From NCBI GenBank assembly GCA_021813145.1, contig JAKALS010000003.1:6114-70113 (forward strand): a DNA stretch of 64,000 bases, given 5' to 3'. The stretch's first letter is position 1. Each line of letters starts with the position of its first letter. The notes beneath the pieces are model-generated. The model was given only the letters and a program-made list of their open reading frames with translations, did no database searches and was not told where the DNA came from. Source of the stretch: a bacterium (lineage in GTDB: Bacteria > Patescibacteriota > Microgenomatia > Levybacterales > UBA12049). Positions 25,265-48,185 of this stretch are shown here, one piece after another. A program made the translations under genes and the position numbers.

Positions 25265-26374
25265 ATGATAGTTACTCTTTTAACGGATAATTTAAGGGCA
25301 AAGCTTTCATTCTTAAACCACGCTGTTTCTCCAAACAGCCAACTGGAAATTCTTTCAAACTTCTTCCTAAAAGCGTCAAAAGGAAAACTAACCGTTAGCG
25401 CAACGGATCTTGAAATAGGCCTTTCGTCTTCCGTTCCGGCAAACGTGGAGGAGGAAGGGGAGACAACGGTTCCCGCAAAGACATTTTTTGATTTGATAAA
25501 CAACATAACGGAGGAAAAAATAACCCTAAAAACAAAGGGGACAAACCTGGAGTTGACGGGCAAAAAAATAAAGATGCTTTTTCAGACAATGCCCCCGGAG
25601 GAGTTCCCAAAGCTTTACGAAGAAAAAGGCGAAGAGGCGGCGGTTTTAAAAAAGGAACTGCTTTTAAAGGACTTTAACAAGGTTGTTTTTTCTGCAAGCG
25701 CGGATAGCTCAAGGCCTGCGCTGTCGGGGGTTTTGGTAAGAAAAGAAAAAGAAGGGTTTTTGATAGTTGCAACAGACGGGTACAGGCTATCTCTAAAAAA
25801 GAACGTCGCCTTCGAAACAAAAAAAGAAACAGGCATAGAAAGCCTTCTGTTGCCGGCAAGGGTAATTAGAGAACTGTTGTCTATAAAACAGGACGAAGAT
25901 ATACGTCTTAATGTTTCAGAAAAAAGCAACCAGGCGGTTTTTACACAGGGGGAAACGGTTTTGGTCGGAAGATTAATAGAAGCGGAATATCCTAACTACG
26001 AAAAAATAATCCCCACGGGTTTTGATACGAAAACGGGCTTTGATAGGGAAGAGATGCATAAAGCAGTGAAAATATGCTCTGTTTTTGCAAGAGAAACCGC
26101 AAATATAGTAAAACTCTCTTTAAAAAAAGACAAAATTGTTGTTTCGGCAAACACCCCAAGCGTAGGCGAGGACACGGTAGAGGTTGAAGCAAAAACAACG
26201 GGGGAGGAAAACGAAATAGCCTTTAACGGCAAGTATCTCCTAGACTTCCTCTCGAACACGGAAGAAGAGGAGGTTGTTTTTGAAATGTCTGGACCCCTTA
26301 ACGCCGGAGTTTTTAAACTCTCGGGCGACGACTCCTTTTTACATCTCATAATGCCCATCAGGGTGCAGGGTTAG
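25265..26374 (+). CDS. dnaN: DNA polymerase III beta sliding clamp
   Basis: dnaA-dnaN synteny; three-domain beta-clamp pattern, N-terminus MIVTLLTDNLRAKLSFLNHAVS. Confidence 0.9.
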   Translation: MIVTLLTDNLRAKLSFLNHAVSPNSQLEILSNFFLKASKGKLTVSATDLEIGLSSSVPANVEEEGETTVPAKTFFDLINNITEEKITLKTKGTNLELTGKKIKMLFQTMPPEEFPKLYEEKGEEAAVLKKELLLKDFNKVVFSASADSSRPALSGVLVRKEKEGFLIVATDGYRLSLKKNVAFETKKETGIESLLLPARVIRELLSIKQDEDIRLNVSEKSNQAVFTQGETVLVGRLIEAEYPNYEKIIPTGFDTKTGFDREEMHKAVKICSVFARETANIVKLSLKKDKIVVSANTPSVGEDTVEVEAKTTGEENEIAFNGKYLLDFLSNTEEEEVVFEMSGPLNAGVFKLSGDDSFLHLIMPIRVQG

Positions 26375-27364
26375 TTACTGTGCGGGTTGGGGGAAAGAAA
26401 CATTCCCGAAAATATTGTTTTCCATCCAGTTATAGGTGTTGGGGCATTGGGTTGGGAAGTTTGTTAGGGGAGTTGCTCCAAAAGGAAAATCTCTCCCCGG
26501 AGTGTTATAAAAAACAGTATCGGCTACGGCTTCGGCAAAGGACTCGGCTTGTCCTGTCCCGGCAATTCCACTTAAGTACGGATAGCTTTTTAAAAATCCG
26601 TCCACATAGCAACCCGCATCCTTGGACAGATAAGAGTTATAGGGAAAAGAACTCCAAAGAGCGCCATTTGCTATTCCTATAACGTGTCCCGTTTCGTGAA
26701 CCAGGGAAAATTTTTGCTCTTGAACAGAGCAGGACTCAAAACCCGTAAGACTTATATACATAACCCCATTTGTTTCATATGTCGAACCCCTGGCGTTTTG
26801 GCAACTGCTAAATGTTAGTAAAAGATGTATGGTTCCGGCTTTCTGCATAAGGCTTTTGTATTTGGCAGACCTAAAAGGAACAGCCAGGCCATTATACAGG
26901 TTAACAAGATAATTTAGATTAGAAGTATCGGATACGGCAACATTAAAGTCGCTTTTAAGCCTAGAGACCACGTTGGAGGCGGTAACAGCACCCCCCGGGG
27001 GAGTTGAAGACGTGGGTCCCGGGCTGTTGTTGGGGGAACCGCTGGTAGAGGGAGAGGCGCTGGTTAAATCCCCTCCGTTAACGGCGCTGGGGCTAACCAT
27101 GGAAACAATCATTACAACAAAAACTAAAACTCCTACTGAGATTAATAATAAAACAATCGCCGGGAGCCCTAGGGATCCGCATGCTGCGACAGCGCCTTCT
27201 TCGATGCCTTTTTTTGCAGCCTGTTTACCGAGTTGCTTCAAAACCTGCTTTCCAAGATATTTTCCTGCTTTTACCGAGTTTTTGGCATTGTTTAGTTTGT
27301 TGTACCCGGAGTTTATGTAGTCAACGGCTCCTTGGTTTTGCTGTTTTCCGTTGTTTTCGTCCAT
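26375..27364 (-). CDS. membrane-anchored zincin-like metallopeptidase (HExxH), last gene of the T4SS-like operon
   Basis: N-in TM helix (LPAIVLLLISVGVLVFVVMIV), Ser/Pro/Gly-rich linker, HETGHVIG motif. Confidence 0.55.
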   Translation of the reverse strand: MDENNGKQQNQGAVDYINSGYNKLNNAKNSVKAGKYLGKQVLKQLGKQAAKKGIEEGAVAACGSLGLPAIVLLLISVGVLVFVVMIVSMVSPSAVNGGDLTSASPSTSGSPNNSPGPTSSTPPGGAVTASNVVSRLKSDFNVAVSDTSNLNYLVNLYNGLAVPFRSAKYKSLMQKAGTIHLLLTFSSCQNARGSTYETNGVMYISLTGFESCSVQEQKFSLVHETGHVIGIANGALWSSFPYNSYLSKDAGCYVDGFLKSYPYLSGIAGTGQAESFAEAVADTVFYNTPGRDFPFGATPLTNFPTQCPNTYNWMENNIFGNVSFPQPAQ

Positions 27365-27381: not shown

Positions 27382-29331
27382 TTAGGATAAACCGGGTTGA
27401 TTTTGCCCATTGCCCTGTCCGGGCAGCGGAGAAGTAGTAGTCGGATTCTCGGTGCCTACCGTCTCTTGTGTCATCGTAGGGCTTTGTGGGGGTACGCTTG
27501 ATGCGGTCCTCAAAGAAGAATTTTGTTCCTGCATTTTTAACAACTCCTGGGGATTCGATGTAATAAGGGTGTGTTCAAACGGAGCCGCAATAACCTTCAT
27601 CGCCACATGGCTTTGCCCCGCGAAAAACAGCCCTTCTCCGATGTCGGCCGAAAGCAAAAGTTCTTTTTCTCCCTCCGACAGATAGAATATCTGGGAAACC
27701 AAATCAACCTCGGACGGGCTTTGTTTTAAAAGCATCTGTATGGAGGAGTTGGAAAGAATTGCCTTCCCGTAATCGGTTGAAAGAAAATCCTGAACATCCT
27801 GGGTTGCGGTCGTTAGGGCAAGATAATATTTTCTCGATCTTTTTGCAACGCTATAAACAAAAGAGGCGGAATCGGGATACTTCATTACATACCAGGCCTC
27901 GTCCAGAATCAACAGTCTTTTTTTAAGGGTTTTTCTTACCCTTGTCCATACAAAATCCAATATTATGTGCATTGCGACAGGCCTTAATTCCTCTTCAAGC
28001 GCTTTTATGTTAAAAACCGTTAAGGGATTTTTAATGTCAAAATTAGACTGTTGGTTAAATATTCCGCTTAAGCTTCCTTTAATAAACTTCTCAAGTCTTA
28101 GCGCAAGCTCTCTTGCGGACGGGTCTTCCATTCCAAGAAGCACCTTGTATAAATCCTCCATTAAAGGGGGTTGATTTTTTTGTGTTTGGGGGTCAGCGGT
28201 AATCCCTTTTTGCCTATACGTCTCAACAAGCGCCCTGTCTAAAATTGCATCATGGGCGGCGTCCAAATCTCCCATTATTATTCTTAAAAGTCCGTGCAGG
28301 GACAAAATTTTAAGCCCTAACTCGTTTTCCCCTTCTTCGTAAAGCCCCGACATATCAAAGGGATTAATTCTCACGGGATCGGAAGGGGTAAAGGATACGT
28401 GCTCTCCCCCTAATGTTTTTGAAAGATTTTCATATTCCCCTTCGGGATCTATTATTATTACCTCGGTCCCGAACATAAACTGTCTCATCGCCTCAAGTTT
28501 TATAAGGTATGATTTTCCCGCTCCGGATTTTCCTAAGACCACTTCGTTTGCGTTTTCCAGGGAATAACGGTCAAAAATTATAAGAGAACCGTTTTGTTCG
28601 TTTACCCCGTACATGACGCCCTTGTCCTGGGCAAGAGTGGCCGAAGTAAACGGAAAAGTTGAGGCAAGAGAAGTTGTGTCCATGTTCCTCGTTATAAAGA
28701 GCCTATCCTGTGCAATCGGAACGGTTGATTTAAACCCGTCTTCCATTTGAAGGGTTGCGGTTTTTGAAAGCATCAGAATGGACCCAAGTGTGGTGCTAAG
28801 TCTTTTTGAAGCTTCGTCAAGATCTTTTACGCTTTCCGCGGAAAGCGTAATGTAAAGACTGAATTGAAAGAACCTCTCTACGCCTTTTGCCAGTTCTTCT
28901 TGTACTGCAAGCGCGTCGTCCAAAGAAGCTTTTACTTTAGGGTCTACGAGCTGGCCTTCTTCTATCTGCGATGAAATGGTGGCCTCCATTTCCGCTATTT
29001 TTCTTCTTAAATCCGATAAGACATCGGGGGAGGAAGTAGGATAAATAAACATAGAAATATTCATGGAATGGTCAAAATCAATAAGAGGCTGTAGCCAATT
29101 TGGCGAAACAAACCTCGGATACCCAACAACAAAAGAAGTTTTATAAAAATCTTCGCCTACTCTTATAAAATGGAAATCTACCTCTATTGAGGAAGGGGCT
29201 ATTACGTCGGTTAAAGAGACCATTCCTTTTTCGAGTTTTCCCATTGACGTTTTTTGCACCGGTCGGGGCGCTGTTTTTTGCTCTTGCGGTGCTGCCGTTT
29301 GCTGTTTTTGTTTTTTTCCGAATAAGCTCAT
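27382..29331 (-). CDS. virB4: VirB4/TrbE/TraC-family conjugative-type ATPase
   Basis: Walker A GKSGAGKS; Walker B LLILDEAW (DEAW is a hallmark of VirB4); size and N-terminal membrane-associated region. Confidence 0.85.
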   Translation of the reverse strand: MSLFGKKQKQQTAAPQEQKTAPRPVQKTSMGKLEKGMVSLTDVIAPSSIEVDFHFIRVGEDFYKTSFVVGYPRFVSPNWLQPLIDFDHSMNISMFIYPTSSPDVLSDLRRKIAEMEATISSQIEEGQLVDPKVKASLDDALAVQEELAKGVERFFQFSLYITLSAESVKDLDEASKRLSTTLGSILMLSKTATLQMEDGFKSTVPIAQDRLFITRNMDTTSLASTFPFTSATLAQDKGVMYGVNEQNGSLIIFDRYSLENANEVVLGKSGAGKSYLIKLEAMRQFMFGTEVIIIDPEGEYENLSKTLGGEHVSFTPSDPVRINPFDMSGLYEEGENELGLKILSLHGLLRIIMGDLDAAHDAILDRALVETYRQKGITADPQTQKNQPPLMEDLYKVLLGMEDPSARELALRLEKFIKGSLSGIFNQQSNFDIKNPLTVFNIKALEEELRPVAMHIILDFVWTRVRKTLKKRLLILDEAWYVMKYPDSASFVYSVAKRSRKYYLALTTATQDVQDFLSTDYGKAILSNSSIQMLLKQSPSEVDLVSQIFYLSEGEKELLLSADIGEGLFFAGQSHVAMKVIAAPFEHTLITSNPQELLKMQEQNSSLRTASSVPPQSPTMTQETVGTENPTTTSPLPGQGNGQNQPGLS

Positions 29332-29996
29332 TGGCTTTCCCTCCCTTTAACAACAGGAGTATTGATGTTGTCCTCGGCTTGCCCTGTTTCTATAGAGCTT
29401 TCGTTGTATATTTCGTAAAAAAGCTTTACCAGTTCTTCTTTTCCTAGGGTTTTTGCTTTAAGGTTTAGTCTTGAAAGTTGTGAGTGAAGAGACTCCGCTT
29501 TTGAATGGAGCGCTGTTTTTGCCGACTGGGCGAAGGAAGCCGCGTCAAAAGACTTTTTGTTTACGCTTGCAGCGGCAGCGCCCGCTCCCTTTTCAAGATA
29601 AGAAAAAGGTAAAACAATATAGAATTTTTTGTCCAAAACGGTATTCACCTTCACGAGCTCCTGAACAAAATCCCTGTAGAGTCTTATTTGCTCGGCAAGC
29701 ATCTGGTTCTGCGTTTTTTTTGCTTCATTTTCTAATAACTTTAAATAAGAGGAAATATCAAGTTTTTTGCTTCTAATGAGGATTTGTATAGGGAAAGACA
29801 GCGAATTCAGAAGCGCAGCGTAGGAGTAAATTTTAGAATCCTGTTCTTCTGCCGATAAAAGGGCAAAATTTGTTGCCGTGACTTCTATTACAAGACAAGC
29901 GTTTCCTCCTGTTAAAATTACTACATCATCAACGATATCCTGTATTTCGGTAAACTTTTGCGTTGTCGCGTTGATTTTTCGGGCAGTTTTGGCCAT
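29328..29996 (-). CDS. T4SS-associated hypothetical protein
   Basis: Co-oriented and translationally coupled (overlapping stop/start) with virB4; no recognisable motif. Confidence 0.4.
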   Translation of the reverse strand: MAKTARKINATTQKFTEIQDIVDDVVILTGGNACLVIEVTATNFALLSAEEQDSKIYSYAALLNSLSFPIQILIRSKKLDISSYLKLLENEAKKTQNQMLAEQIRLYRDFVQELVKVNTVLDKKFYIVLPFSYLEKGAGAAAASVNKKSFDAASFAQSAKTALHSKAESLHSQLSRLNLKAKTLGKEELVKLFYEIYNESSIETGQAEDNINTPVVKGRESQ

Positions 29997-31258
29997 TAGT
30001 TAAAAAGAGACCTCCTTAACTCTTCTCTTGTGTCTACGGAAATAACTTCTATGGGAAGAATAATCTGGCCTGTTGCGCTAAACTCTATTACATCAAACTT
30101 GTTCTCTCCCTTGGAGTCCTCAAATTCAATGGTATATGTGCCGTTCGTTATGGGGGTGGCAGAGGCAAATTGCCCAAGCGGATTAGTTTTAAATGCTCTT
30201 ACGGGATTCCCTTCGGCATCTTTTACCTCAACCAGAATATTTTGCAAGGGGTTCCCTCTCGGGTCCTTTACTATTCCCGTTACGATATTGGGAAACTCCG
30301 GCGCCAAGGGAAGGCCGACGCTTTTTCCCAGGTTTTGGGGGATACTTCTTACGTTCCTCGTTTCCTTTACCGGTTCCTGCGCAACTGAAGGCGTGTAAAC
30401 AGTCTCCCTGTTTGCGGTTAATTGTTTTTGTAAAAGTTCTATCTGTTTTTCAAGTTCCTGTTTTTGTTTTGCGGTTTCGGAAAGCATCGTTTCAAGCTCC
30501 ATTACTTTTTTGTGTGCTTCCGTATACTCTGTGGAGTTTATCTTTGACGTCTCGGCGGCTTTTGCTTCTGCAAGCTCCTGCTGAAGAATGAGAGTCTCTC
30601 TTTTTAGGGTTTCTTCTTCGTCCGAAGGTTTTTCTTCTTCTTGTTGCTGCCCTTGCTCCACCGGTATTTGTACTTGCGACGCGGCCGGAAGTTGTGTTGG
30701 TGGCTGCTGTTGTCCGGGAACGGGTACGTTTGCAAAAGCATGGGCGGGAGGAGCCTGTGGAATGGGATTTGTCTGCGTCTGTCCAGAATACATATTGCTT
30801 AAGGATTCAAAAAAAACCATTTCTTTTTGGTCTAACTGATTTTTTGGCCTCTTTGGAAGAGAATTTAGGTATGATTTTAATTCTTCACCCGAGAGAGAAG
30901 TAGTTTCTTTTTGGGGAACAAGCTTGGCGGAGCTTTTTTTAACCGGTTTTATATCTTCCCATAACTGGCCGCCGGTTTTTTGGTAAACAAATTGGGTCGG
31001 AGAAAAAATTGCTTTAATAAAATTTTCAAACATTAAATCCATGGGCCTTCCCTCTATCGGTAAAAAAGCCATTCCTACGCCTAAAAATATGGAAGTGACG
31101 GCAAGGGGAAGTTTTATAAGCATAAAAAAGGGGCTTGCGAACAAAAGCCAACCAAGTACAATTCCGCCTGCCAGATAGGCAAATTGTTTTATGGTCATAT
31201 CGCCGATCAGTTTAAACTGAAAGCCCGTTATGTCCTGTGGTATCGGATGATTTTCCAT
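29996..31258 (-). CDS. T4SS-associated membrane protein (VirB3-like N-terminal TM hairpin, coiled-coil and Gln/Pro-rich linker, C-terminal beta domain)
   Basis: Two N-terminal TM helices (FAYLAGGIVLGWLLFASPFFMLI, LPLAVTSIFLGVGMAFLPI); QQ-rich and heptad region; operon position. Confidence 0.45.
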   Translation of the reverse strand: MENHPIPQDITGFQFKLIGDMTIKQFAYLAGGIVLGWLLFASPFFMLIKLPLAVTSIFLGVGMAFLPIEGRPMDLMFENFIKAIFSPTQFVYQKTGGQLWEDIKPVKKSSAKLVPQKETTSLSGEELKSYLNSLPKRPKNQLDQKEMVFFESLSNMYSGQTQTNPIPQAPPAHAFANVPVPGQQQPPTQLPAASQVQIPVEQGQQQEEEKPSDEEETLKRETLILQQELAEAKAAETSKINSTEYTEAHKKVMELETMLSETAKQKQELEKQIELLQKQLTANRETVYTPSVAQEPVKETRNVRSIPQNLGKSVGLPLAPEFPNIVTGIVKDPRGNPLQNILVEVKDAEGNPVRAFKTNPLGQFASATPITNGTYTIEFEDSKGENKFDVIEFSATGQIILPIEVISVDTREELRRSLFN

Positions 31259-31365
31259 CTCTTAATTGTTATTTAATTGTATTTTCAGCATATAACGTGA
31301 AAAATTGCGTTTCAAGATTATCAAACTGGGTCAAAAAATATTGGAAATGAGGCTATCCGTGAAAA

Positions 31366-31680
31366 TTATGAACAATTTCCAAAACCGAAAGGTTTAGTAA
31401 TACAAGATGTTCCCGTAATTTGAGCTATTATAGCTATAATAGCGCCTGCAAGAAGTATTAGAATAAGCCCCAAAATGGCATAGGTAAGCGTTTTTCTTGC
31501 TCCCTCTACTTGTTTCGGGTCGCCGCCTGACGTTAAAAATTTTATTCCTGCGAAGATTATAAAAAAAACGGCGGTAACTCCGGCTAATCCTATAAGCCAA
31601 AAAACAAGATTATTGAAAACAACAGGAATACAATTTAGTGTTGCAACGCCGTTTTGAACGCAGTCTCCCCAAGGTTGCAT
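31366..31680 (-). CDS. VirB2/TrbC-like pilin paralog 1
   Basis: ~100 aa, helix-SGGD-helix architecture (FAGIKFLTSGGDPKQVEGARKTLTYAILGLILILLAG); Cys-containing N and C tails. Confidence 0.6.
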   Translation of the reverse strand: MQPWGDCVQNGVATLNCIPVVFNNLVFWLIGLAGVTAVFFIIFAGIKFLTSGGDPKQVEGARKTLTYAILGLILILLAGAIIAIIAQITGTSCITKPFGFGNCS

Positions 31681-31720
31681 GAAATAAGCGTAGCAAAAGG
31701 AAAACTAAAAGACAAGTGGG

Positions 31721-32128
31721 TTAACTGCAGGTTGGATTTGTAAGGCTTGGTATGCAGAATTTGCCCGTTAGCGGGTTTGAAATCCCTATAAGCTGGAAAA
31801 CTATATTTATGATGACAAATGCTGTTACGACTATTACTAACCCGATTATAGCTGCAACAATGTGTTTTCTTGCTGCGTCAACTGCCGCCTTATCCCCGCC
31901 CGAAAGAATCCATTTTATTCCTCCATAGATCAAAAAAGCTACCGCTACCAGTACCCCGACGATCAAAAGTAAGGATAAGATAAAAGATGGTATATTCCCA
32001 AGATTAACAGAAGTTGTAGGAGCGTAACCCGTCCCGGGGGCAATTGTAACCGTAATTTGCGCGAACGCATTTGAGGCTGCCAATAAATAGAACGATGCGG
32101 CAGAGATAAAACCCAGTGCTTTTTTCAT
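31721..32128 (-). CDS. VirB2/TrbC-like pilin paralog 2 (with signal peptide)
   Basis: Signal peptide MKKALGFISAASFYLLAASNAFAQ; core IYGGIKWILSGGDKAAVDAARKHIVAAIIGLVIVV; C-terminal CxxxxxxxxCS. Confidence 0.6.
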   Translation of the reverse strand: MKKALGFISAASFYLLAASNAFAQITVTIAPGTGYAPTTSVNLGNIPSFILSLLLIVGVLVAVAFLIYGGIKWILSGGDKAAVDAARKHIVAAIIGLVIVVTAFVIINIVFQLIGISNPLTGKFCIPSLTNPTCS

Positions 32129-32173
32129 TACTCTTTCTTGAGAATATAGTGTTTTTGCTGATTTGTCAAGAGC

Positions 32174-32509
32174 TTAGAACAATTTTCCTACTCCCAATAG
32201 TTGATAGACAAAATTGACAATGGTGCCCGCAAGAACAACGACTATAAGTCCGATTATCGAGAAAATAAGCCTTTGTCTTGCAGCCTGAATTTTTTGTTTG
32301 TCGCCGCCGGACATGGTCCACTGTATTCCGGCATAAATAATAAAAGCCATTGCTAAGACTACTGCGAGTAAAATTAAAATACTGCTCGCAATGGAAATAA
32401 GGGTAGTGCCGGTACTTATTCCGGCATCCGGTACGCCATTGGGCGGGGTGATGGTCACGTTTCCGTTGTTTCCCGGAACAGTTAACGCTAAAAGTTTCAT
32501 ATTATCCAA
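32174..32509 (-). CDS. VirB2/TrbC-like pilin paralog 3
   Basis: Core IYAGIQWTMSGGDKQKIQAARQRLIFSIIGLIVVVLAG. Confidence 0.6.
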   Translation of the reverse strand: MDNMKLLALTVPGNNGNVTITPPNGVPDAGISTGTTLISIASSILILLAVVLAMAFIIYAGIQWTMSGGDKQKIQAARQRLIFSIIGLIVVVLAGTIVNFVYQLLGVGKLF

Positions 32510-33572
32510 AGCCCGGAATGTGTAAAATATTAACCCCTATTATTTCAAGAATAACAAGAGAAAAAATAATAAACAATAGTCCCACTATTGCTGCGGTTAG
32601 TTGTTCCCTCGCTCCTTTTATCGCTTCCGGATTTCCTTGTGAGACCAAAAGCCTGTATCCGGATATTATTATCAGTAAAAGCGCCACTCCCCCCGAGAGG
32701 CTTAATATTAAGCCGAAAAGACTTGTTATAAGACTTTGGGGCTCTGTTCCTAACGTTCCAAGCGCGGTATCAACAGCAGTACAGGATCCTTTTACCGTAG
32801 AACCTAAATGGCAGGGTGAAGGCGGAGATTGATCTTGAGGGTTACCCGCGGAGTTAACCCCTCCCCCGTAAGTATCTACATAAAAAGTTGCATAACATGC
32901 CTGTTTTTCTAACAGGTGGGCGGGAGTGCACCCGTCGTTTATTTGCATATAATATCTTCCCGTTGAAAGCGGAACAAAACCAAATCCAGTACTATTCGTT
33001 AAATCTCTTCTTGTTACACAGCCGTCCCAAACGCTCCCCCCGTTGTTGTCATTAATGCGGATATAAGTGTGTAATTGATCGTCTGGATTGCCTGACGCAA
33101 GGGGACCTGTCATTTTTATTATTATATTATTGGTTGGCGTAAACGATTGGTTTAGGAATGAAATATTGCAACTTGTCCCTCCGCTTCCCGAGCCTGCGCT
33201 CCCAATCGTAAAAACAGGACTGTTGTTGCACAAATTATTTCCCGTGTCCGAAGAAAGAAAAAGCCCCACTTTGTAGGCTCCATTCCCAAAAGTTGAGGGA
33301 ACGGCGGCTGTCACTTTTCCGGAGGAGGCGGAGTAGGGGATTGGAACAGAATACCTAATGGTGTTAGTTCTTATAAAATTACCATTTAGGGAAACATAAT
33401 ATGTGAGATCCTTATTGTTTGCCAGATTCCCGTTTGTATCTATTGTAATTGTCCCGCCGTTATTAATACTGGAAGGACTGACGGAGCAGGCAAAAGAGGC
33501 GTAAGTTTTTTTAGGAAAAAATATTAAAAAAAGCAACAGTCCAAAAAAGACCAAAAGGAAAATTCTTTTCAC
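32502..33572 (-). CDS. secreted Gly/Ser/Asn-rich beta-type domain fused to C-terminal VirB2-like pilin module (candidate minor/tip pilin or adhesin)
   Basis: Signal peptide; C-terminus ISGYRLLVSQGNPEAIKGAREQLTAAIVGLLFIIFSLVIL shares the motif of the three pilins. Confidence 0.5.
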   Translation of the reverse strand: MKRIFLLVFFGLLLFLIFFPKKTYASFACSVSPSSINNGGTITIDTNGNLANNKDLTYYVSLNGNFIRTNTIRYSVPIPYSASSGKVTAAVPSTFGNGAYKVGLFLSSDTGNNLCNNSPVFTIGSAGSGSGGTSCNISFLNQSFTPTNNIIIKMTGPLASGNPDDQLHTYIRINDNNGGSVWDGCVTRRDLTNSTGFGFVPLSTGRYYMQINDGCTPAHLLEKQACYATFYVDTYGGGVNSAGNPQDQSPPSPCHLGSTVKGSCTAVDTALGTLGTEPQSLITSLFGLILSLSGGVALLLIIISGYRLLVSQGNPEAIKGAREQLTAAIVGLLFIIFSLVILEIIGVNILHIPGFG

Positions 33573-33608
33573 ATTTTTATCGTACTCTAATTTTTAAGAA
33601 AAATGCAA

Positions 33609-34937
33609 CTAGGGGGTAAATTTAAAACCACGGCCTTTCACGGTTTGGATATAAACAGGGCTATTCGGGTTGTCTTCAATTTTTTTTCTTAATCTTGATA
33701 TAAGTTGGTCTATTGCCTGTTCGGTTACCCCTGCGGTTGACTGCATTTCTCCCCACACCGCACTTACCACTTCATTTCTTTCTACAACTTTATTCCCGTT
33801 TAATATAAAAAATTTTAAAAGTTTAAACTCCGAAGATGTAAGCTTGTCCGAAAGAACTACTTGGCCTTTTTTTATTTGGTTCGAATTTTTGTCAAAAACT
33901 ATTTTTCCGGTTTCCTCCGAGCGTATCCTTGCGCTATCTTTTAAATAATCCCTTAATAGGGGGATTTGAAGTGAATTATCTTTGACAAGGCCCAATTTTC
34001 TCAGGAATTCAACGTCAATGCTTCCAAAATTTAAAAGCGAAATTTTTGTTTGTTCGTCGGGATTTAGAGCATTCCAAATCGCAAACAATGCACTTCTTAC
34101 GGGCATTTGTTTAAGTAGAAACTCCTTAATCTCTCCGTTAATTTTTTGATTTACAGAAAGCACTGCCTCCAGAGAGTGTCTTGTAAGATTTCCGTGTCCG
34201 CCCGTTAATGAAATTACATCTTCGATAATATTATTTTTTATTTTTTTGCCTGTAATTTTTTCAAGATAGGCTATTCTAAAATTCATTCCCGCCCTGTCAT
34301 AAAGGGTAAGGTAAATAAGCTTCCCGGCTGTAAATTCGTAAAAATCAGAAAAAAATGTCGGCTCAAGGATGTCCTCGATCGGTCTTGAGGAAGAAATTAC
34401 AACAGAAAATCTGTACTTTGCCCTGTTTCTTAAAATCCTAAGATTGGAAAAAAAATCAGGGGACAAAGAAGGAATATGCTCTTCAAACCTGTCCAAAAGA
34501 AAAACAACGGTAAACTCTTTTTCTATAGATAAAAAATCTATTGCTTTTTTTAATCCGTCAAATAAAACAAGCTCGTCATTGGCCTTAAGGCTTTCCTTAA
34601 AGAAGGAATTAATTTTTTCGTATTCGTTGTCCATCCGTCTTTCCCTAAGGGAGTCCAAAAGCCCCAAAAAAATAAATTTAGTTACCTCTAGAATCGTTTT
34701 ATTTTTTATTTCCGAAAAATTTAAAAGGACAAAATGGAACCATTTTTGATTTTCCCCAAGATGTTTTTCTTTTACTTTTTTATTATAGGCAAGAAGCCCC
34801 AAGAGATTTGACCTCCCTACTCCGGGAACCCCTATTATTTGGCAGGAATTCCCCTCCTTAATGAATTCCAATATTTTTTTTATCTCGGAAAATCTCGTGT
34901 CCTCCGGATATAGTGATTCAAAGTGACTGGGTTCCAT
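33609..34937 (-). CDS. NTPase-like domain + C-terminal OmpR/PhoB-type winged-helix regulator; first gene of the T4SS-like operon
   Basis: Deviant P-loop IIGVPGVGRSNLLGLL; C-terminus EVVSAVWGEMQSTAGVTEQAIDQLISRLRKKI...IQTVKGRGFKF; paralog of 13652-14995. Confidence 0.6.
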   Translation of the reverse strand: MEPSHFESLYPEDTRFSEIKKILEFIKEGNSCQIIGVPGVGRSNLLGLLAYNKKVKEKHLGENQKWFHFVLLNFSEIKNKTILEVTKFIFLGLLDSLRERRMDNEYEKINSFFKESLKANDELVLFDGLKKAIDFLSIEKEFTVVFLLDRFEEHIPSLSPDFFSNLRILRNRAKYRFSVVISSSRPIEDILEPTFFSDFYEFTAGKLIYLTLYDRAGMNFRIAYLEKITGKKIKNNIIEDVISLTGGHGNLTRHSLEAVLSVNQKINGEIKEFLLKQMPVRSALFAIWNALNPDEQTKISLLNFGSIDVEFLRKLGLVKDNSLQIPLLRDYLKDSARIRSEETGKIVFDKNSNQIKKGQVVLSDKLTSSEFKLLKFFILNGNKVVERNEVVSAVWGEMQSTAGVTEQAIDQLISRLRKKIEDNPNSPVYIQTVKGRGFKFTP

Positions 34938-35012
34938 GGTTAGTACATTGTAATTTTTTTGTTAGGTAAATATCAAGCAAAGCGAGAAATCTTTTTCTAA
35001 ACTTCGGTTAAT

Positions 35013-37604
35013 ATGACAGAGCAGCAACCAAGACCAATTAATTTGACAAACCAAACCAATCTAAATAGACTGGAAGGTGAAAGGATAATTATGCCTGAGC
35101 CGGGCGGACAGGAGCAGCAGGCTCCGATAACGCCAAGACAAGAAGAGGTAATACAAGAAGCAGTTAATCCGCCGGAAGGAATAGATAGGCCCGCAGAAGA
35201 AGCGGCAGGGATTTCTCCCAGGAGACCTGAACATAGGGAAAGCCATGCGGAAAGAGTGGAAAGAACATTCGAAGAGTTTACGAGAAGCATTCAAACCAAA
35301 GACACTCTTTCCCAGCTTGCAAGCGATACTCCGGATTTTGCAAAAACACCCGAGCTTAAAAAATTTGTAGATGAGCTTGAGCCCGGAGGAGATTTAATAA
35401 GATATTTTGCAGATTTTATTACAAACCCCGAGCAGGATTATGTAGACGAAGAAGGGGCACGCTATAGAATATCTACTGCTTCAAGAAGAGTCCTTTTTGA
35501 ATGGGCGCTTGAAAAAATCATAGGACTTCCCGAACAGGGGTCTCCAGAGGCGAGATATTCGATAGACTCCTTTCAGGCCAGAGAAAACCTTACCCTCCTA
35601 AAAGCCCTTAGCCTTTCCCGCTTTAATAATGAATTCTCAAGGTATATAGGAAGCATGATAGAAATCAGGGAAATGGCCCACGAACTTCGAAGAAACCTGA
35701 CCCAGGGCGATGCCTATAAAGAATTCATGCAGAAGGAGTTAAAGGCTCACGGAATTGATTTTATGAGAAACGAAGTCTCGGGAGTAAAAGACGTAATTTC
35801 ATTATACGAGCTTTTTACGGGTCTTAAGGTTTCGCAAAAAAGGGAATGGTTAAGCGCGGGAGACGTTGAGGATATAGACCACGAAGTTAAAGAGGCAATA
35901 ATGGCTCTTAAAGGAAAAAGCCAGATAAAGCAGGGAGAAAGGCCTTTGACGGATTGGGAAATAGATAGGGCGCTTTCTATAGGGAAAACACTTTTTGCAG
36001 GTACACAAAGGTTTGCAATGTATACCGTTTTGGGCTCTATTCCGACTCAAACGGCGGAAAGAGCAGGCTCGGTCCCTTACGAATATATAGTAAGAACACT
36101 TGCCCCTATTAAAATTACAGCTGCCAGGTATTTTACTTCTGCGGGACAAAGGTATCTTCAAGAAAGGATTCTCGATAATTATAAAAATGGCAAAAAAACG
36201 TCTTCCCTTTTTGGTATTGCCGAAAATTCCTGGGCGATGAACAACTTTAACGCATTTGATGTCGAAAGTCACAGTTGGAGGTCGCAGTTAATGTTTTTAG
36301 GGGATATGAGATTCAGGATAAAAACCGGGGAAGACGCAGAAGGAAACCCTGTTTATAAAGAAGGCAATGTTTTGGAATACTTTAACGACGAGCTGACTAG
36401 GTTGGCAGAGAGCACGGGAGCTGAATATGATCCCGCTTTAGGACTTGAGGGGGGTTCGGATAAAGAATTTTCCAATAACGAAAATGTTGCAGCCCTGGCT
36501 CTGGGGCAAAAACTTTACCTTTCAGTTTTGGGAAAATATTCACCTTTTAGCGAAGAGTTAAAAAGAGGAATATACCGAAAAATTGCAATTTACGATCCTC
36601 TTGCTTTTACTTCTCTTTCTCCCGAAGTGTTAAGCTCTCTTTCTCCCGAGCAAAAAAGAGTTTGGCAGGGAATGGCAATAAAAATGGGAATGGCAAATTC
36701 CATAAGGCTCAGGAAAGAAGGAGAAGAATATTTTGACGAACATGAACATAGGAAAACTTTGGATATAGACAGCCTGAAACAAGAGGCGGGAGAAACATAT
36801 GATTTTTCGACTAAAAAACTTAAAGATGTATCACAGATAAGTGATGACTATAAATATCAGATATTGTCCAAATACTTTTCCGAGGAGTACGGGAATGCAT
36901 TAACCGGAGAAGAGCAAGAGGTTCTAAAAACAATCATAAGAACTTCTTTAAGCGGAGAATTTGTAAATAATGTGGTCTCTGCGGAAAAACCTTTCACTTT
37001 TATAATCGACGATGCCCCCCATGTTGCCTGGAGCAAAACAAGGGACGGAGTTGGGGGTTTGGGAGACGAAAACCTTTTTAGGATTTTGCTTTCGGACCAG
37101 GGCAACCTTGCGGAATCCTGGGGTGCGCTAAACGGTTTGATTGAACATCCTCCGGCCGACCCGTCCAAGGCATTTATAACTTTCGTACAAAAAAGAGCAC
37201 TTGTTACGGGAAGAGGAGAGGCCCAAGGAAAACTGGAGCCGTTTTTAAACGCCTGGTTGGATATGGCTTCTACTTACGACCGTTCTAAATGGATAGGGGC
37301 AATAGAAAAAGCCACAAGGCACCCAAGGTCGGAAATGGAAAAATTTTACAGGGGGAATTATATTTCCATGGATGAACAGGATAAGTCGATATTTTTAGAC
37401 TCATTGGCCCAACAAGGAGCGATCGGGACAAATATAGCGAGAGGGCCTTCACAACTTGAAGAATTGAAGAAAAGAAATAAGGCTTATATTATAGATAACC
37501 TCAGGAGGTCCGCAAGGATGATATTGCTCCTTTTAGGTCCAACGCTGGGAATTCAATTTCTAAAACTTATATTTCCCGATGAGATAACAAAAGGACTTAA
37601 GTAA
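35013..37604 (+). CDS. large acidic hypothetical protein, divergent from the T4SS-like operon
   Basis: 863-aa ORF with no TM segments or recognisable catalytic motifs; true start may be internal. Confidence 0.4.
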   Translation: MTEQQPRPINLTNQTNLNRLEGERIIMPEPGGQEQQAPITPRQEEVIQEAVNPPEGIDRPAEEAAGISPRRPEHRESHAERVERTFEEFTRSIQTKDTLSQLASDTPDFAKTPELKKFVDELEPGGDLIRYFADFITNPEQDYVDEEGARYRISTASRRVLFEWALEKIIGLPEQGSPEARYSIDSFQARENLTLLKALSLSRFNNEFSRYIGSMIEIREMAHELRRNLTQGDAYKEFMQKELKAHGIDFMRNEVSGVKDVISLYELFTGLKVSQKREWLSAGDVEDIDHEVKEAIMALKGKSQIKQGERPLTDWEIDRALSIGKTLFAGTQRFAMYTVLGSIPTQTAERAGSVPYEYIVRTLAPIKITAARYFTSAGQRYLQERILDNYKNGKKTSSLFGIAENSWAMNNFNAFDVESHSWRSQLMFLGDMRFRIKTGEDAEGNPVYKEGNVLEYFNDELTRLAESTGAEYDPALGLEGGSDKEFSNNENVAALALGQKLYLSVLGKYSPFSEELKRGIYRKIAIYDPLAFTSLSPEVLSSLSPEQKRVWQGMAIKMGMANSIRLRKEGEEYFDEHEHRKTLDIDSLKQEAGETYDFSTKKLKDVSQISDDYKYQILSKYFSEEYGNALTGEEQEVLKTIIRTSLSGEFVNNVVSAEKPFTFIIDDAPHVAWSKTRDGVGGLGDENLFRILLSDQGNLAESWGALNGLIEHPPADPSKAFITFVQKRALVTGRGEAQGKLEPFLNAWLDMASTYDRSKWIGAIEKATRHPRSEMEKFYRGNYISMDEQDKSIFLDSLAQQGAIGTNIARGPSQLEELKKRNKAYIIDNLRRSARMILLLLGPTLGIQFLKLIFPDEITKGLK

Positions 37605-39203
37605 TTATCCTCTTCCAAACATTCTACCTATGAAGGCTCGTCCTAATTTTCGCTCGCCATATTCAGGAGGAGCGCCTTTTGTTGCCCCTTCCTTTAGTGC
37701 GATTACCTCTCTTGATGCAGCTATTGTGCCACCCACATTTCTTACTACATTGGTGGGATAGGCGACTCCGGCAGAAACAGCCTGGCCGATTGGACCAAGG
37801 TCAATCTTGGGAGCCTTAAAGGCAGCTTTGGTTATGTTGACAACATGCGGAGTGGTAAAGATAACACCCAGTGCTATTAATGCCCCAACCGTGTTTGTGG
37901 CTCCCGGGTTTCCTATTAAAGGAGGGACAAATTGCCCCGCCTGATAAGAACTTCCAAATGAGTCTATAAACAACTTTCCAATTAAAAACATTGCTATTGT
38001 TACTGGAAATGCCGAAAGATTTCCAAGCATGTCCCTGAGCCATGCGCTGAACCCGACATTAGAAGAGTTACCGGTCCCGGGAATTAAGCCTCCTATTATC
38101 CAAAAAGGCGCAAAAATTACGTCTACAAGAGTGAATATATAAGCAGAAAGAAGCGCAAACCAAAGCCTGAAAAGAGACCACAAAATGGCAACTGTTATAA
38201 CTATAAAAGCAAGTATTCCGCCTACGAATGCGAGTAGTCCGCCTATCACGGCCCCAAGAACTGTTCCCACGGGGTTTGTTAAAAGATCTACAAAACCGTT
38301 TCCGGCAGTTGTCTGGGCAGCTCCTCCATTGGAGAAAAGACTAAGAATGATGTTGGCAATAGAAGTTGAGGCGTTTGTGGCGACACCTAAAATGCCTCCA
38401 TTGTAAGCGTCATTTGCAAAATTAAGCGGTGTAGTGTAAAGATTTGACGTAAGGTGTCCGGCCTGAGCGCTTGCGCTGGCGGAATTTATGATATTAGGGT
38501 CTGCTTGGGTAAGCACATTTATAATAAGATAAATAGCTACCCACATTACATCTACCAACAAACCTGCTATCGCAAAAGAAAAAGTAACAAACAAAATACC
38601 TATTATTAGTTTTGGAATCTGATTTTGAATTGTCATTACGGTTCTGGGGTCGATTTTTATTCTAAGCATTATCGCAAAACCGATGATTATAAAAATCAAT
38701 ACAAAAATTAAATAGACGAGGTTTCTAAATACGATCCAGGCATTCATTAGGGGAGAGAGCTGATCAAATCCGGTTTCTTGTTTTACGGTTGCGGCATAAC
38801 TCGGCTTTGTAATCCCGAAATTGTCCCTTACATAGGCAATGAAGTCGCTTGTATGAACGGGCGGATTAAGAGTCATGGTAATAAGGCTACCCATAACCGC
38901 AATAGCCCCTCCGCTATTCTGGACAAATCCTATTTTTCCCGTTTTTTTGTCAACCCCTAAGCATTGAGCCTTAGGGTTTGAAGGATCAACTCCGGCAAGC
39001 TGGCAGCTTATTGCTGAGAGGGTTTGGATCATTACATTTTGAGTCAATGTATTCATGTTTTGAGGAACATCGCTATTGGTATTGGCATTTAGATAGGGAT
39101 TTGTTTGAGAAGAATCTGATTGGGCAAAGGTTAGGGTTTTAGCAAAAAACAGTCCCGTTATGAGAAGAAGTCCAATAAAAAACAAACGGACAGAGATTTT
39201 CAT
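37605..39203 (-). CDS. VirB6/TrbL-like polytopic membrane protein
   Basis: Signal peptide plus >=6 TM helices with Gly/Ala-rich segments; size and topology typical of VirB6; locus context. Confidence 0.5.
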   Translation of the reverse strand: MKISVRLFFIGLLLITGLFFAKTLTFAQSDSSQTNPYLNANTNSDVPQNMNTLTQNVMIQTLSAISCQLAGVDPSNPKAQCLGVDKKTGKIGFVQNSGGAIAVMGSLITMTLNPPVHTSDFIAYVRDNFGITKPSYAATVKQETGFDQLSPLMNAWIVFRNLVYLIFVLIFIIIGFAIMLRIKIDPRTVMTIQNQIPKLIIGILFVTFSFAIAGLLVDVMWVAIYLIINVLTQADPNIINSASASAQAGHLTSNLYTTPLNFANDAYNGGILGVATNASTSIANIILSLFSNGGAAQTTAGNGFVDLLTNPVGTVLGAVIGGLLAFVGGILAFIVITVAILWSLFRLWFALLSAYIFTLVDVIFAPFWIIGGLIPGTGNSSNVGFSAWLRDMLGNLSAFPVTIAMFLIGKLFIDSFGSSYQAGQFVPPLIGNPGATNTVGALIALGVIFTTPHVVNITKAAFKAPKIDLGPIGQAVSAGVAYPTNVVRNVGGTIAASREVIALKEGATKGAPPEYGERKLGRAFIGRMFGRG

Positions 39204-39317
39204 CCTAAAATCAGTTTGTCCTATTTTGTGGCTTATGTCAAGCGCAGCAGTCGTATTGGCGGAGAGAGGCGGGATTTGGTTCGACTATGCTCACCATAAA
39301 CTTCTCATCCCTTGGTG

Positions 39318-39405
39318 CGGAGGGGGCGGGATTCGAACCCGCGATATCCTTGCGGATATACCTGCTCTCCAAGCAAGCGCACTAGACCAACTATGCGACC
39401 CCTCC
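39318..39405 (-). tRNA. tRNA-Ser (anticodon GGA)
   Basis: Hand fold: acceptor GGAGGGG/CCCCTCC, 3-bp D stem, anticodon loop TTGGAGA, long variable arm with GCAA loop, T-loop TTCGAAT, discriminator G. Confidence 0.85.
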
Positions 39406-39406
39406 A

Positions 39407-39447
39407 AACTAGATGCTAGAAACTAGATACTAGATGTTAGATGTTTC
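39407..39447. repeat. 7-nt tandem repeat (Nctagat)x5 abutting tRNA-Ser and overlapping the nudix 3' end
   Basis: actagatgctagaaactagatactagatgttagatg read directly. Confidence 0.85.
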
Positions 39448-39866
39448 TGAGCCTCTTTCCAGACCTCTTTGTCCGATTTATAGGTTAATCTGTTTTCAAC
39501 TTCTTCCGGTTTTATCCACTCAACATTTTCCATTTCCCAATCATGCTCACTAATGTCTCCCGATAAATATTCCATTAAGTAATAATATACGGTTTTTTTT
39601 ATTTTCTCGCCCTCCAGAACGTACCAATACTGAACAGGACTTAAAGCCTTTATTATTTTACCGCTAACACCTGTTTCTTCTTTTACTTCCCTTACCGCCG
39701 TTTGTTCTTTTCCCTCTCCTTTTATGTGGTCTCCGATAATACCTTTAGGAAAAACCCAACCGTGGTGTTGGGAATGCTGAGACACCAAGATCAGGATTGC
39801 TGATTGCTGATTACTGATTACTGATTTTTTAAATACGACTCCGCCGGCAGAAAATTCAAATCTCAT
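39423..39866 (-). CDS. NUDIX hydrolase
   Basis: Nudix box GEGKEQTAVREVKEETGV; GGVVFKK N-terminal strand. Confidence 0.85.
   Translation of the reverse strand: MRFEFSAGGVVFKKSVISNQQSAILILVSQHSQHHGWVFPKGIIGDHIKGEGKEQTAVREVKEETGVSGKIIKALSPVQYWYVLEGEKIKKTVYYYLMEYLSGDISEHDWEMENVEWIKPEEVENRLTYKSDKEVWKEAQKHLTSSI
39793..39830. repeat. 7-nt tandem repeat (Nctgatt)x5 inside the nudix 5' coding region
   Basis: aggattgctgattgctgattactgattactgatttttt read directly. Confidence 0.85.
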
Positions 39867-39881
39867 AATTCTTACTTACTG

Positions 39882-39968
39882 CGGAGAGGGTGAGATTCGA
39901 ACTCACGGTCGCCTTTCGACGACAGCGGTTTTCGAAACCGCCGCACTAGTCCGCTATGCGACCTCTCC
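39882..39968 (-). tRNA. tRNA-Ser (anticodon CGA)
   Basis: Hand fold: acceptor GGAGAGG/CCTCTCC, anticodon stem GCGGT/ACCGC, loop TTCGAAA, long variable arm, T-loop TTCGAAT, discriminator G. Confidence 0.85.
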
Positions 39969-39973
39969 GTTTG

Positions 39974-40046
39974 CGTGCCCGAGAGGAATCGAACCTCCAA
40001 CCGCCTGGACCGCAACCAAGTGTTCTATCCGTTGAACTACGGGCAC
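39974..40046 (-). tRNA. tRNA-Arg (anticodon GCG; unusual for bacteria)
   Basis: Hand fold: acceptor GTGCCCG/CGGGCAC, D stem GTTC/GAAC, anticodon stem CTTGG/CCAGG, loop TTGCGGT, T-loop TTCGATT. Confidence 0.75.
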
Positions 40047-40088
40047 TTGCAAAGTGTATTTTACTTTATTGGAGGATTCTTAGCAAAC

Positions 40089-40667: not shown

Positions 40668-40763
40668 AATTTAACTTTATATTAAAGATACCTTTAAGTC
40701 AACGAAAGGAACTTATCTACAGCAGAATGTCCTTGTCGAAGGGCGGATTCGAGTTAGACTCGG

Positions 40764-40850
40764 CGGAGAGGGTGGGATTCGAACCCACGGTGGCATTGCT
40801 GCCACGATGGTTTTCAAGACCATTGCACTAGTCCGCTATGCGACCTCTCC
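40764..40850 (-). tRNA. tRNA-Ser (anticodon TGA)
   Basis: Hand fold: 5' half identical to Ser-CGA; anticodon stem ATGGT/ACCAT, loop CTTGAAA, long variable arm, T-loop TTCGAAT. Confidence 0.85.
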
Positions 40851-47413: not shown

Positions 47414-47420
47414 TTTGGTG

Positions 47421-47510: not shown

Positions 47511-47534
47511 TTCTAGGTCCTCCAATTATACCAT

Positions 47535-48101: not shown

Positions 48102-48156
48102 AAAGCCAGTATATAGTATATTGTTTCCAGTATCCAGTATAAGCCAAACCTGGCAC

Positions 48157-48180: not shown

Positions 48181-48185
48181 AAGTG

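Follow-up and report, generated by a model that had tools for sequence, protein, structure and literature searches.

A four-gene pilin array with a modular long pilin in the chromosomal type IV secretion locus of a Levybacterales bacterium

A stretch of 64,000 nucleotides from a bacterium of the order Levybacterales (Patescibacteriota, Microgenomatia, UBA12049; GenBank assembly GCA_021813145.1, contig JAKALS010000003.1, positions 6,114 to 70,113 of the forward strand), referred to as the window below, was found to carry four adjacent minus-strand genes for proteins with a common C-terminal pilin module. These genes are named p1 to p4 from upstream to downstream. It is nearly certain that they are the pilin operon of a chromosomal, origin-proximal type IV secretion system (T4SS) of Levybacteria-like Patescibacteria (class Microgenomatia). 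In the long pilin p1, a hypervariable ectodomain precedes a highly conserved module, and all four pilins belong to classes that keep their place across related genomes. We consider it probable that p2 to p4 build a surface fibre or stalk, which p1 would join as a minor or tip subunit with a host-binding domain.

Among the few machines that Patescibacteria are known to require for their epibiotic life is the T4SS, and p1 may be the part of it that recognises the host cell. Neither a long pilin of this modular, hypervariable kind nor the division into four position-conserved classes appears to be described in the literature searched.

The pilin module and the ectodomain of p1

All four proteins match the Pfam family PF18895 (T4SS_pilin), with 35.0 bits for p1, 39.9 for p2, 34.5 for p3 and 42.8 for p4 (E 1.5e-8 to 5.6e-11). 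Because all of them exceed the curated gathering threshold of 26.6 bits, the resemblance between the modules goes far beyond chance. Aligned with each other, the four modules have 12 invariant columns and 33–38% identity, and a profile built from the family and run on the window matched exactly p1 to p4 and nothing else up to E=10. A first-pass annotation, made from the letters alone, had described three tandem open reading frames (ORFs) and a longer fourth one, all with a common C-terminal pilin module, and these were confirmed at the same positions. Its motif for the module holds for p2 and p3 and, with IKF in place of IKW, nearly for p4, but describes p1 only loosely (SGYRLLVSQGNPE...AREQLTAAIVGL). 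The reading of the proteins as pilins gained support from the curated T4SS pilin hidden Markov model PF18895 and from the genes for PrgI/VirB3, TrsD and VirB4, which lie directly downstream.

As expected for PF18895, the proteins have two hydrophobic helices with a short, positively charged loop and are encoded in a T4SS cluster, as are those in most of 80 related loci from species-representative genomes, in which pilin-profile matches and marker genes were mapped for comparison. Hydropathy and charge counts revealed that the loops between the helices are rich in K and R, and that the tails, in which the Cys pairs lie, are near-neutral. A Cys loop of the disulfide type just before helix 1 is common to p1, p4 and most p3 orthologs. 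The predicted topology is a hairpin of the N-out/C-out kind, as in VirB2, which would have both ends outside and the short positive loop inside the cytoplasmic membrane.

Each of the four proteins also matches NCBIfam NF045849 (Mbov_0395 pilin-like conjugal transfer protein, from integrative and conjugative elements (ICEs) of Mycoplasma), with E-values of 1e-7 to 2.5e-5 that stay below the threshold of this family. These matches suggest that hairpin proteins are not foreign to monoderm T4SSs, and hint that monoderm MPF-FATA systems already had VirB2-like hairpin proteins and did not take them over from diderm T4SSs.

A plain helical hairpin is a common fold, for which structure searches also returned the ATP synthase c subunit and coiled coils, and p2 has weak sub-threshold matches to unrelated membrane families. 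Generic, holin-like two-helix membrane proteins that lie near T4SS genes by chance might give the same picture, an explanation to which we assign a negligible probability. All four proteins score above the curated PF18895 threshold and stand in strict synteny with PrgI, TrsD, VirB4 and VirB6 in dozens of genomes. Out of 100 long homologs scanned, all match PF18895, two additionally match TrbC and none matches a holin family, and the ATP synthase subunit AtpE of E. coli, used as a control, gave no alignment to the module profile (hhalign). The matches were not confined to generic proteins with two transmembrane (TM) segments, since PF18895 was matched and T4SS genes are the neighbours; family and synteny results refute the holin-like reading. 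Pilins of type IV pili were rejected as well, as inspection of the four N-termini revealed no G/(F,M)xxxE prepilin motif and the hydrophobic module is C-terminal and consists of two helices.

The long pilin p1 (32502..33572, minus strand) starts with GTG, comprises 356 aa and matches PF18895 at residues 276–344. A signal peptide (residues 1–25, 33498–33572) with likely cleavage between TYA and SF is followed by a variable ectodomain of 225 aa (residues ~26–250, 32823–33497), delimited by the conservation boundary, and by the conserved module of Cys loop and helical hairpin (residues ~251–356, 32505–32822). Among 100 long homologs, conservation climbs from about residue 251, where a Pro-rich linker is followed by the Cys loop, and amounts to 72–89% per ten-residue block in the hairpin.

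An AlphaFold2 (AF2) model of p1 with a mean predicted local distance difference test (pLDDT) score of 84.8 contains a helix at residues 2–16, two beta-sandwiches and two helices at residues 278–310 and 315–349, and in model comparisons the beta-sandwiches were similar to TIG, FN3 and Ig folds. The ectodomain is composed of 12.2% G, 11.8% S, 11.0% N and 9.7% T, which together with the predicted sandwiches bears out its earlier description as a Gly/Ser/Asn-rich domain of the beta type. p1 has eight Cys (29, 115, 135, 185, 215, 226, 254 and 264), of which four are invariant in the subfamily (39 full-length homologs), and this points to an extracytoplasmic, disulfide-bonded ectodomain, likely with four disulfides. 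The candidacy of p1 as a tip adhesin or minor pilin, already put forward by the first-pass annotation, is strengthened by the signal peptide, the eight Cys and the predicted Ig-like folds, and by the position of a hypervariable domain on a highly conserved module.

The hypervariability became evident in several comparisons. In the best 120 database homologs, the last 86 residues are 58–85% identical in 120 of 120, whereas the N-terminal 270 residues align in only 41. Across 79 related loci, the module (last ~105 residues) is 46–86% identical to the copy in the window, and similarity of the ectodomain was detectable in only four (L004, L005, L006 and L020), at 27–44%. A match of the ectodomain was missing even where VirB4 is 73–86% identical: locus L013 has a VirB4 of 80% identity, and locus L010 has a regulator of 66%, a p4 of 69% and a module of 78% identity, both with no ectodomain match. 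When 78 long pilins were clustered by their ectodomains, 50 clusters were obtained, 40 of them singletons. The relatedness of ectodomains and modules is partly incongruent, as modules of 70–83% identity were found with unrelated ectodomains and modules of 43–46% identity with a common ectodomain family. In the long pilins of loci L054 and L057, the C-terminal ~110 residues are near-identical and the rest aligns weakly with many gaps, with 37% identity overall. Either recombinational replacement or extreme diversifying selection would explain the variation of the ectodomain.

The ectodomain has few relatives. When 1.84 billion cluster representatives were scanned in full with HMMER, 22 relatives were obtained, nearly all of them long pilins, and a Pfam domain was recognised in the ectodomain of one of 100 long pilins (fn3), the others being orphans. 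The exact p1 protein is present on several contigs; it is alone in its 90% cluster, and its next relative has 56% identity. Apart from pilins, the second ectodomain domain has relatives only in P0121 (2668 aa), P0128 and P0131, giant secreted proteins with many pre-peptidase C-terminal (PPC) repeats, one of which also has a clostripain domain. Because these sole non-pilin relatives carry PPC repeats, the second domain may be a diverged beta-sandwich of the PPC type.

A host-recognition element would be expected to combine a constant anchor with a hypervariable extracellular domain, as seen in p1, and the published survey of these systems found no adhesin. In metagenomes of uncultivated Microgenomatia, the type of ectodomain could be correlated with co-occurring hosts.

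Short pilins and position-conserved classes

The three short pilins differ in their leaders and Cys patterns. The gene for p2 (32174..32500, minus strand) encodes a Cys-free pilin of 108 aa from its ATG, which lies one base past the p1 stop codon. The ORF extends to a TTG at 32509 (111 aa), and public gene calls start at the ATG at 32500 (108 aa). p2 has no classical signal peptide, a conserved N-terminus (MK.LAL..PG), and two hydrophobic segments joined by a loop with four K/R and one D/E. The next gene, p3 (31721..32128, minus strand), encodes 135 aa with a Sec-type signal peptide (cleavage between AFA and Q) and a C-terminal Cx8CS tail. Its orthologs usually carry an N-terminal CP.G....LC pair, which p3 of the window lacks, having a C-terminal pair instead.

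p4 (31366..31680, minus strand, 104 aa) has no signal peptide and, like its class, starts directly with MDW..C. It contains a Cys pair in the N-terminal tail (C7 and C17), the extra N-terminal pair noticed earlier in one paralog, and another one in the C-terminal tail (C93 and C103). The latter is a Cx9CS tail, so that of two Cx8CS tails proposed in the first-pass annotation the one in p3 stands and the one in p4 does not. A search for p4 returned 241 homologs at E<=1e-3, mostly of 101–110 aa; C17, C93 and C103 are invariant in 52 sequences, and W4 and C7 are conserved in at least 90%. The AF2 model of p4 is a helical hairpin (residues 17–50 and 55–89, pLDDT 82.8).

By inspection, Sec-type signal peptides with A at position -1 were seen in p1 and p3, and none in p2 and p4. 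The N-terminal regions had been regarded as unrelated, which does not apply to all of them, as p2 and p3 have a common VTI.P..G stretch. A gene for a TraF-like cyclase or peptidase did not turn up among the window ORFs scanned, in which no dedicated search for it was made.

The close relatives of the locus belong to Candidatus Levyibacteriota, Daviesbacteria and other Microgenomates metagenome-assembled genomes (MAGs). They have a recurrent gene order of regulator, long pilin (140–710 aa), pilins of ~110, ~135 and ~104 aa, PrgI, TrsD, VirB4, sometimes an HExxH protein, dnaN and dnaA, and the pilin order is kept in 40 canonical four-gene arrays. Members of the p2 class occupy the second position in 40 of 40 arrays (median 110 aa, median 0 Cys), and p3 orthologs the third (median 138 aa, conserved signal peptide ending in A). 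Between genomes, modules at the same position are 58% (p1, with the most conserved module of the four), 38.5% (p2), 48% (p3) and 47% (p4) identical, and paralogs within a genome are 27–41% identical. Nearest neighbours in other genomes were members of the same class in 155 of 160 cases, and the Cys patterns are class-specific, with none in p2 and an own pattern each in p3 and p4. This argues for four ancient, specialised subunits and not for recent duplicates.

Tandem pilin genes have also been considered as a device for antigenic or phase variation, in which recent, interchangeable duplicates would serve host evasion or switching, by analogy to Trw of Bartonella and VirB2 of Anaplasma. This analogy was raised in the published paper on Patescibacteria arrays (PMC12102498) and would be compatible with the tandem arrangement, with paralogs that are only 33–38% identical and with extra copies in some relatives (five to seven pilins or two long pilins). 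Several findings speak against it and make it very improbable. The classes are kept in order and sequence across 40 genomes with orthologs closer than paralogs, each class has its own leader and Cys pattern, and neither DNA-level similarity between copies nor silent pilin cassettes nor DNA repeats were found in the 64-kb window. Moreover, individual array genes are essential in S. epibionticum and hence not interchangeable. As the classes are conserved and repeats or cassettes are missing from the window, the paralogs are old and specialised, recent antigenic variation is unsupported, and for p2 to p4 this explanation is largely refuted. Of the antigenic or functional diversification suggested in the first-pass annotation, the functional alternative alone is supported. 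Four ancient classes predict a heteropolymeric or staged assembly, not antigenic variation.

Loci L006, L014, L022, L040, L068, L078, L080, L081 and L082 depart from the four-gene layout in that they have either a tandem of two long pilins or between five and seven pilin genes; two long pilins are carried by L006, L022, L040, L078, L080 and L082. Such relatives provide material for asking whether extra ectodomains broaden the host range. Many of the related MAG records (among loci L005–L079) are titled 'uncultured Gammaproteobacteria bacterium', with VirB4 proteins 56–86% identical to that of the window. Because a Levybacteria-type locus is present, these titles look like placeholder mislabels.

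The secretion locus and its surroundings

The pilin genes lie directly upstream of genes for PrgI/VirB3, TrsD and a CD1110-type VirB4 on the same strand, and the intergenic gaps along the run from p1 to PrgI are 1, 45, 40 and 107 bp. A scan of 29900–35200 for promoters and terminators counted 13 promoter-like sites (10.8 +/- 3.4 in shuffled sequences) and 12 terminator-like sites (6.6 +/- 2.4 in shuffled sequences). It gave no convincing intergenic terminator in this region, so that the short gaps are all that bears on operon structure.

The PrgI/VirB3-like membrane protein (29996..31258, minus strand) matches PF12666 PrgI at residues 5–90 (34.2 bits, cut-off 27) and is found directly 3' of the pilins in related loci as well. 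It is 420 aa long instead of ~100 aa, and beyond the PrgI domain a Q/P/E-rich linker, a coiled coil and a C-terminal Ig-like domain (CarboxypepD_reg, 31.7 bits, just under the cut-off of 32.3) were recognised, which suggests a PrgI/VirB3 subunit with an extracellular extension. The TrsD-like protein of 222 aa (29328..29996, minus strand), assigned by NCBIfam and synteny, resembles the N-terminal part of VirB4. Its matches to NCBIfam TrsD/TraD (E 2.3e-5, 24 bits, cut-off 200) and to the VirB4_plasma N-terminal region (E 9.6e-11) are below the curated cut-offs, and a PF26593 TraC-like match is already on record for an identical product. The VirB4-type T4SS ATPase of 649 aa (27382..29331, minus strand) scores 389.4 bits against NCBIfam NF045971 (VirB4-like, CD1110 family; cut-off 325) and matches Pfam P-loop_TraG with E 1.8e-26. 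The match to NF045971 conju_CD1110 assigns it to the monoderm type by profile score, not by phylogeny.

Downstream of virB4, a membrane-anchored protein of 329 aa with an HExxH motif (VHETGH), an S/P/T-rich linker and one TM segment (residues 69–87) is encoded at 26375..27364 on the minus strand. It has a weak Peptidase_M57 match (E 0.025), and orthologs follow virB4 in L006, L018, L019, L027, L066 and L077. It is a possible metallopeptidase accessory of the T4SS, and may be the counterpart of an essential peptidase that was reported in S. epibionticum, where it likewise lies downstream of virB4.

On the other side of the array, a gene for a polytopic membrane protein of 532 aa (37605..39203, minus strand) with seven predicted TM segments was identified as a candidate for a divergent VirB6/TrbL; more than 55 related loci have an ortholog in a syntenic position upstream of the pilins. 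The protein of the window has no Pfam match of its own; five of 37 orthologs match Pfam TrbL/VirB6 (best E 5.9e-7) and two match TrbL_5. In an hhalign comparison, residues 157–218 (TM2, loop and TM3) could be aligned to the pilin module with P 7.5e-4 and a probability of 25%, which echoes the relationship of VirB6 to VirB2, and of CedA to CedA1, as a VirB6-like partner with a pilin-like hairpin (Beltran et al. 2023, PMC9905601). Probably, this protein is the divergent VirB6 that was reported as scarce in Microgenomatia, and as a candidate it fills a gap noted in the published survey (PMC12102498).

A regulator of 442 aa (33609..34937, minus strand) is encoded immediately upstream of p1 and has the same place before the long pilin in most related loci. 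It consists of an ATPase-like N-terminal region and an OmpR-type winged-helix domain (Trans_reg_C, 74.2 bits) and is likely a dedicated regulator. A second paralog of ~445 aa with the same make-up lies at 13652–14995 (minus strand), and both are devoid of a receiver domain. Between the VirB6-like gene and the regulator, a divergently transcribed gene (35013–37604, plus strand) encodes an orphan protein of 863 aa with no Pfam or NCBIfam match and one C-terminal TM segment, and it is kept there in at least eight related loci (e.g., L004, L005, L010 and L027).

Genes for dnaN (25265–26374) and dnaA (23796–25139) follow on the opposite strand to the T4SS genes, and then rpmH, rnpA, yidD and yidC. 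The remaining window genes include sigma-70, primase, purA, purB, ruvB, a class I tRNA synthetase, penicillin-binding proteins, SpoIID, five tRNAs and a transfer-messenger RNA (tmRNA). Four tRNA-Ser genes (anticodons GGA, CGA, UGA and GCU) and one tRNA-Arg lie within ~8 kb (39317–40850 and 47420–48555, minus strand), and the tmRNA gene adjoins the last tRNA-Ser. No relaxase or coupling protein (T4CP) was found among the window ORFs scanned, where the other large ORFs are housekeeping genes or have no family match. Because of the housekeeping flanks and since neither relaxase nor coupling protein was seen, the locus is a chromosomal, origin-proximal T4SS, and a conjugation module of a mobile element was rejected. 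The T4SS derives from monoderm conjugation machinery of the MPF-FATA type, with no relaxase or coupling protein nearby.

A putative surface fibre and its relation to known systems

In the favoured reading of a surface fibre, the hairpins of p1 to p4 would insert into the cytoplasmic membrane with their ends outside and the positive loop inside. The VirB4 ATPase, together with TrsD, PrgI/VirB3 and a platform formed by the VirB6-like protein, would extract them from the membrane, as current models propose for the recruitment and extraction of VirB2 by the inner-membrane set of VirB3, VirB4 and VirB6 type (2025 review). The extracted hairpins would polymerise into a surface fibre or a short stalk, probably with lipid as in all solved conjugative pili, and p1 would join as a minor or tip subunit with its ectodomain facing outward. 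There it might be the host-contact element, an adhesin that stands in for VirB5 or PrgB, which these systems lack. Between lineages, the ectodomain would be replaced or diverge very fast while the anchor stays constant. A fibre or stalk is the most likely product because a hairpin of the N-out/C-out type occurs together with a set of VirB3, VirB4, TrsD and VirB6-like proteins, and because there is an archaeal precedent in monoderm cells.

Several points weigh against this reading. No pilus has been seen in any Patescibacterium for this T4SS, and monoderm conjugative T4SSs are generally pilus-less. The evidence would fit a position of p1 at the tip, along the shaft or simply in the membrane, where it might stay. 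Fast divergence and recombinational replacement of the ectodomain are not fully separable, and p2 and p3 are poorly separated as classes, with 40.7% identity between p2 and p3 within a genome and 38.5% between p2 proteins of different genomes. The connection to VirB2 is likewise indirect. Matches to PF04956 (TrbC/VirB2) are in the correct register and sub-threshold, with 18.3 bits for p4 and 16.4 bits for p2 against a cut-off of 27.9; p1 and p3 were not listed up to E 0.1, and two of 100 long homologs match at E<=1e-3. A profile of 331 modules aligned to VirB2 of A. tumefaciens (a single sequence, verified against PDB 8cue) in the right register with a P of 0.067 that is not significant (hhalign), and to TraA of F, for which an unverified sequence was used, with a P of 0.17. 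The four-module profile found no pilin among all PDB chains and gave one chance match (E 7.3). The best Foldseek match of p4 is the conjugation pilus of A. pernix (8dfu), which is not significant (E 2.8), and because the fold is a plain helical hairpin, the fold comparison is not diagnostic. As PF04956 is sub-threshold and the alignment to VirB2 not significant, the proteins were filed under PF18895; homology to VirB2 proper is not claimed since the hhalign values are too weak. There are thus good grounds for the label 'VirB2-like', although sequence comparison does not prove the relationship.

Alternatively, the hairpins might stay in the membrane as components of a translocon of VirB3, VirB4 and VirB6 and form no filament, with p1 as an anchored surface protein near the channel. 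They would then be comparable to VirB2 homologs on which transfer depends in systems with no visible pili, and to the small pilin-like proteins of Mycoplasma ICEs. The description of monoderm T4SSs as pilus-less and the lack of reports of a pilus for Patescibacterial T4SSs would agree with this, as would the sub-threshold matches of all four proteins to NF045849, a family of wall-less monoderms; the pilin-like hairpin of the VirB6-like protein would fit an ancestral role as true membrane subunits. However, four conserved, non-redundant classes with exposed, disulfide-bonded tails seem more than an accessory of a channel needs, and monoderm archaea build pili of the conjugative type from the VirB2-like proteins CedA1 and TedC, one of which provided the best Foldseek match of p4. 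Reviews treat a pilus as a live possibility. Taken together, we regard a system with no filament as unlikely, yet far from negligible.

A more specific version of the fibre reading is put forward only tentatively. It takes the proteins as modular pilins of the VirB2 type, with p1 as adhesin or tip and main host determinant and p2 to p4 as non-redundant subunits of a heteropolymeric fibre. If true, monoderm bacteria would have their first conjugative-type pilus, which would also be the first one made from several pilin classes. In Levybacteria and other Microgenomatia, the conserved module would be the handle by which an Ig-like ectodomain, hypervariable and in some cases exchanged by recombination, is polymerised or anchored, and p1 would be the main determinant of which host cell the epibiont attaches to and feeds from.

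T4SSs of Patescibacteria have been described across 3,035 genomes (Quinonero-Coronel et al. 2025, PMC12102498). In that survey, the VirB4 clade was related to MPF-FATA, TrsD, PrgI and VirB2-like pilins were found near virB4, relaxases were absent and VirB6 was scarce in Microgenomatia. The locus was located near dnaA, dnaN and rnpA, and 441 arrays of 2–11 pilin genes with a mean identity of 25% within arrays were reported, especially in Microgenomatia and Saccharimonadia. Earlier, it was shown that S. epibionticum requires its T4SS and the predicted pilins to grow as an epibiont (Wang et al. 2023, PMC10633639); according to the tables of that study, SEML1_0014–0019 are short PF18895 proteins, of which SEML1_0017–0019 were scored as essential. 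A 2024 perspective called the role of the Patescibacteria T4SS 'completely unknown', and a 2025 review regarded a possible pilus of monoderm T4SSs as an open, exciting question. Because tandem pilin arrays have been published (PMC10633639, PMC12102498), the kind of locus is already known and the window adds a further example; the proteins can be found in public databases, and homologs carry the automatic annotation 'pilin'.

The locus agrees with SEML1_0014–0019 of S. epibionticum and with the published arrays (PMC12102498) in the PF18895 family, in a tandem array by PrgI, TrsD and VirB4 near dnaA and dnaN, and in having no relaxase. Paralog identity is low in both, with 25% on average in the published arrays (PMC12102498) and 27–41% here. 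The Saccharibacterial array consists of short pilins only, with the module ending by about residue 180, whereas here the first gene has a variable ectodomain of 225 aa, which reaches ~560 aa in relatives of p1 and has no counterpart in the Saccharibacterial array. Long pilins and position-conserved orthologous pilin classes were not described in the published papers on Patescibacteria T4SSs, one of which states that no adhesins were detected.

With VirB2, TrbC and TraA of diderm bacteria (T-pilus 8cue/8exh, R388 TrwL 8s6h), the four proteins share a small hairpin with a short basic loop, virB3 and virB4 as neighbours, both ends predicted outside and sub-threshold TrbC matches in the correct register. 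In contrast to diderm VirB2, they stay below the PF04956 threshold and belong to a monoderm cell in which no TraF-type cyclase or VirB5 was seen, and there are four different subunits instead of one, with one fused to a large ectodomain.

CedA1 of Aeropyrum pernix and TedC of Pyrobaculum are hairpin pilins in single-membrane archaea, which build lipid-containing pili of the conjugative type from VirB2-, VirB4- and VirB6-like parts only (PMC9905601). The unprocessed CedA1 resembles p2 and p4, and TedC with its cleaved signal peptide resembles p1 and p3 (PMC9905601). No sequence similarity to Ced or Ted proteins is detectable, and with E 2.8 the structural match falls short of significance. DNA is imported by the archaeal systems, for which no ectodomain-bearing pilin has been described.

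Type IV pilins, which belong to an unrelated filament system, are characterised by a class III signal peptide and a hydrophobic helix at the N-terminus. They can be modular, as in the bimodular PilB of Streptococcus sanguinis, where an adhesive domain is grafted onto a conserved polymerisation module, which we take to be the same design principle as in p1. The signal peptide of p1 is of the ordinary Sec type and its two-helix module lies at the C-terminus; the likeness is one of function and does not imply membership.

Trw of Bartonella, with multiple copies of VirB2 and VirB5, and the VirB2 paralogs of Anaplasma have in common with the locus that divergent tandem VirB2 genes belong to a T4SS with no coupling protein that is thought to serve mainly in host attachment. 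In an array of that type, the copies would be expected to be recent duplicates that are more alike within a genome than between genomes, or to be fed by repeats or cassettes. Here, orthologs (38–58% identity) are at least as similar as paralogs (27–41%). Their copies are read as variable and interchangeable, whereas the pilins of the present locus form ancient, ordered classes, in which the variable part is the ectodomain of one subunit and not the modules.

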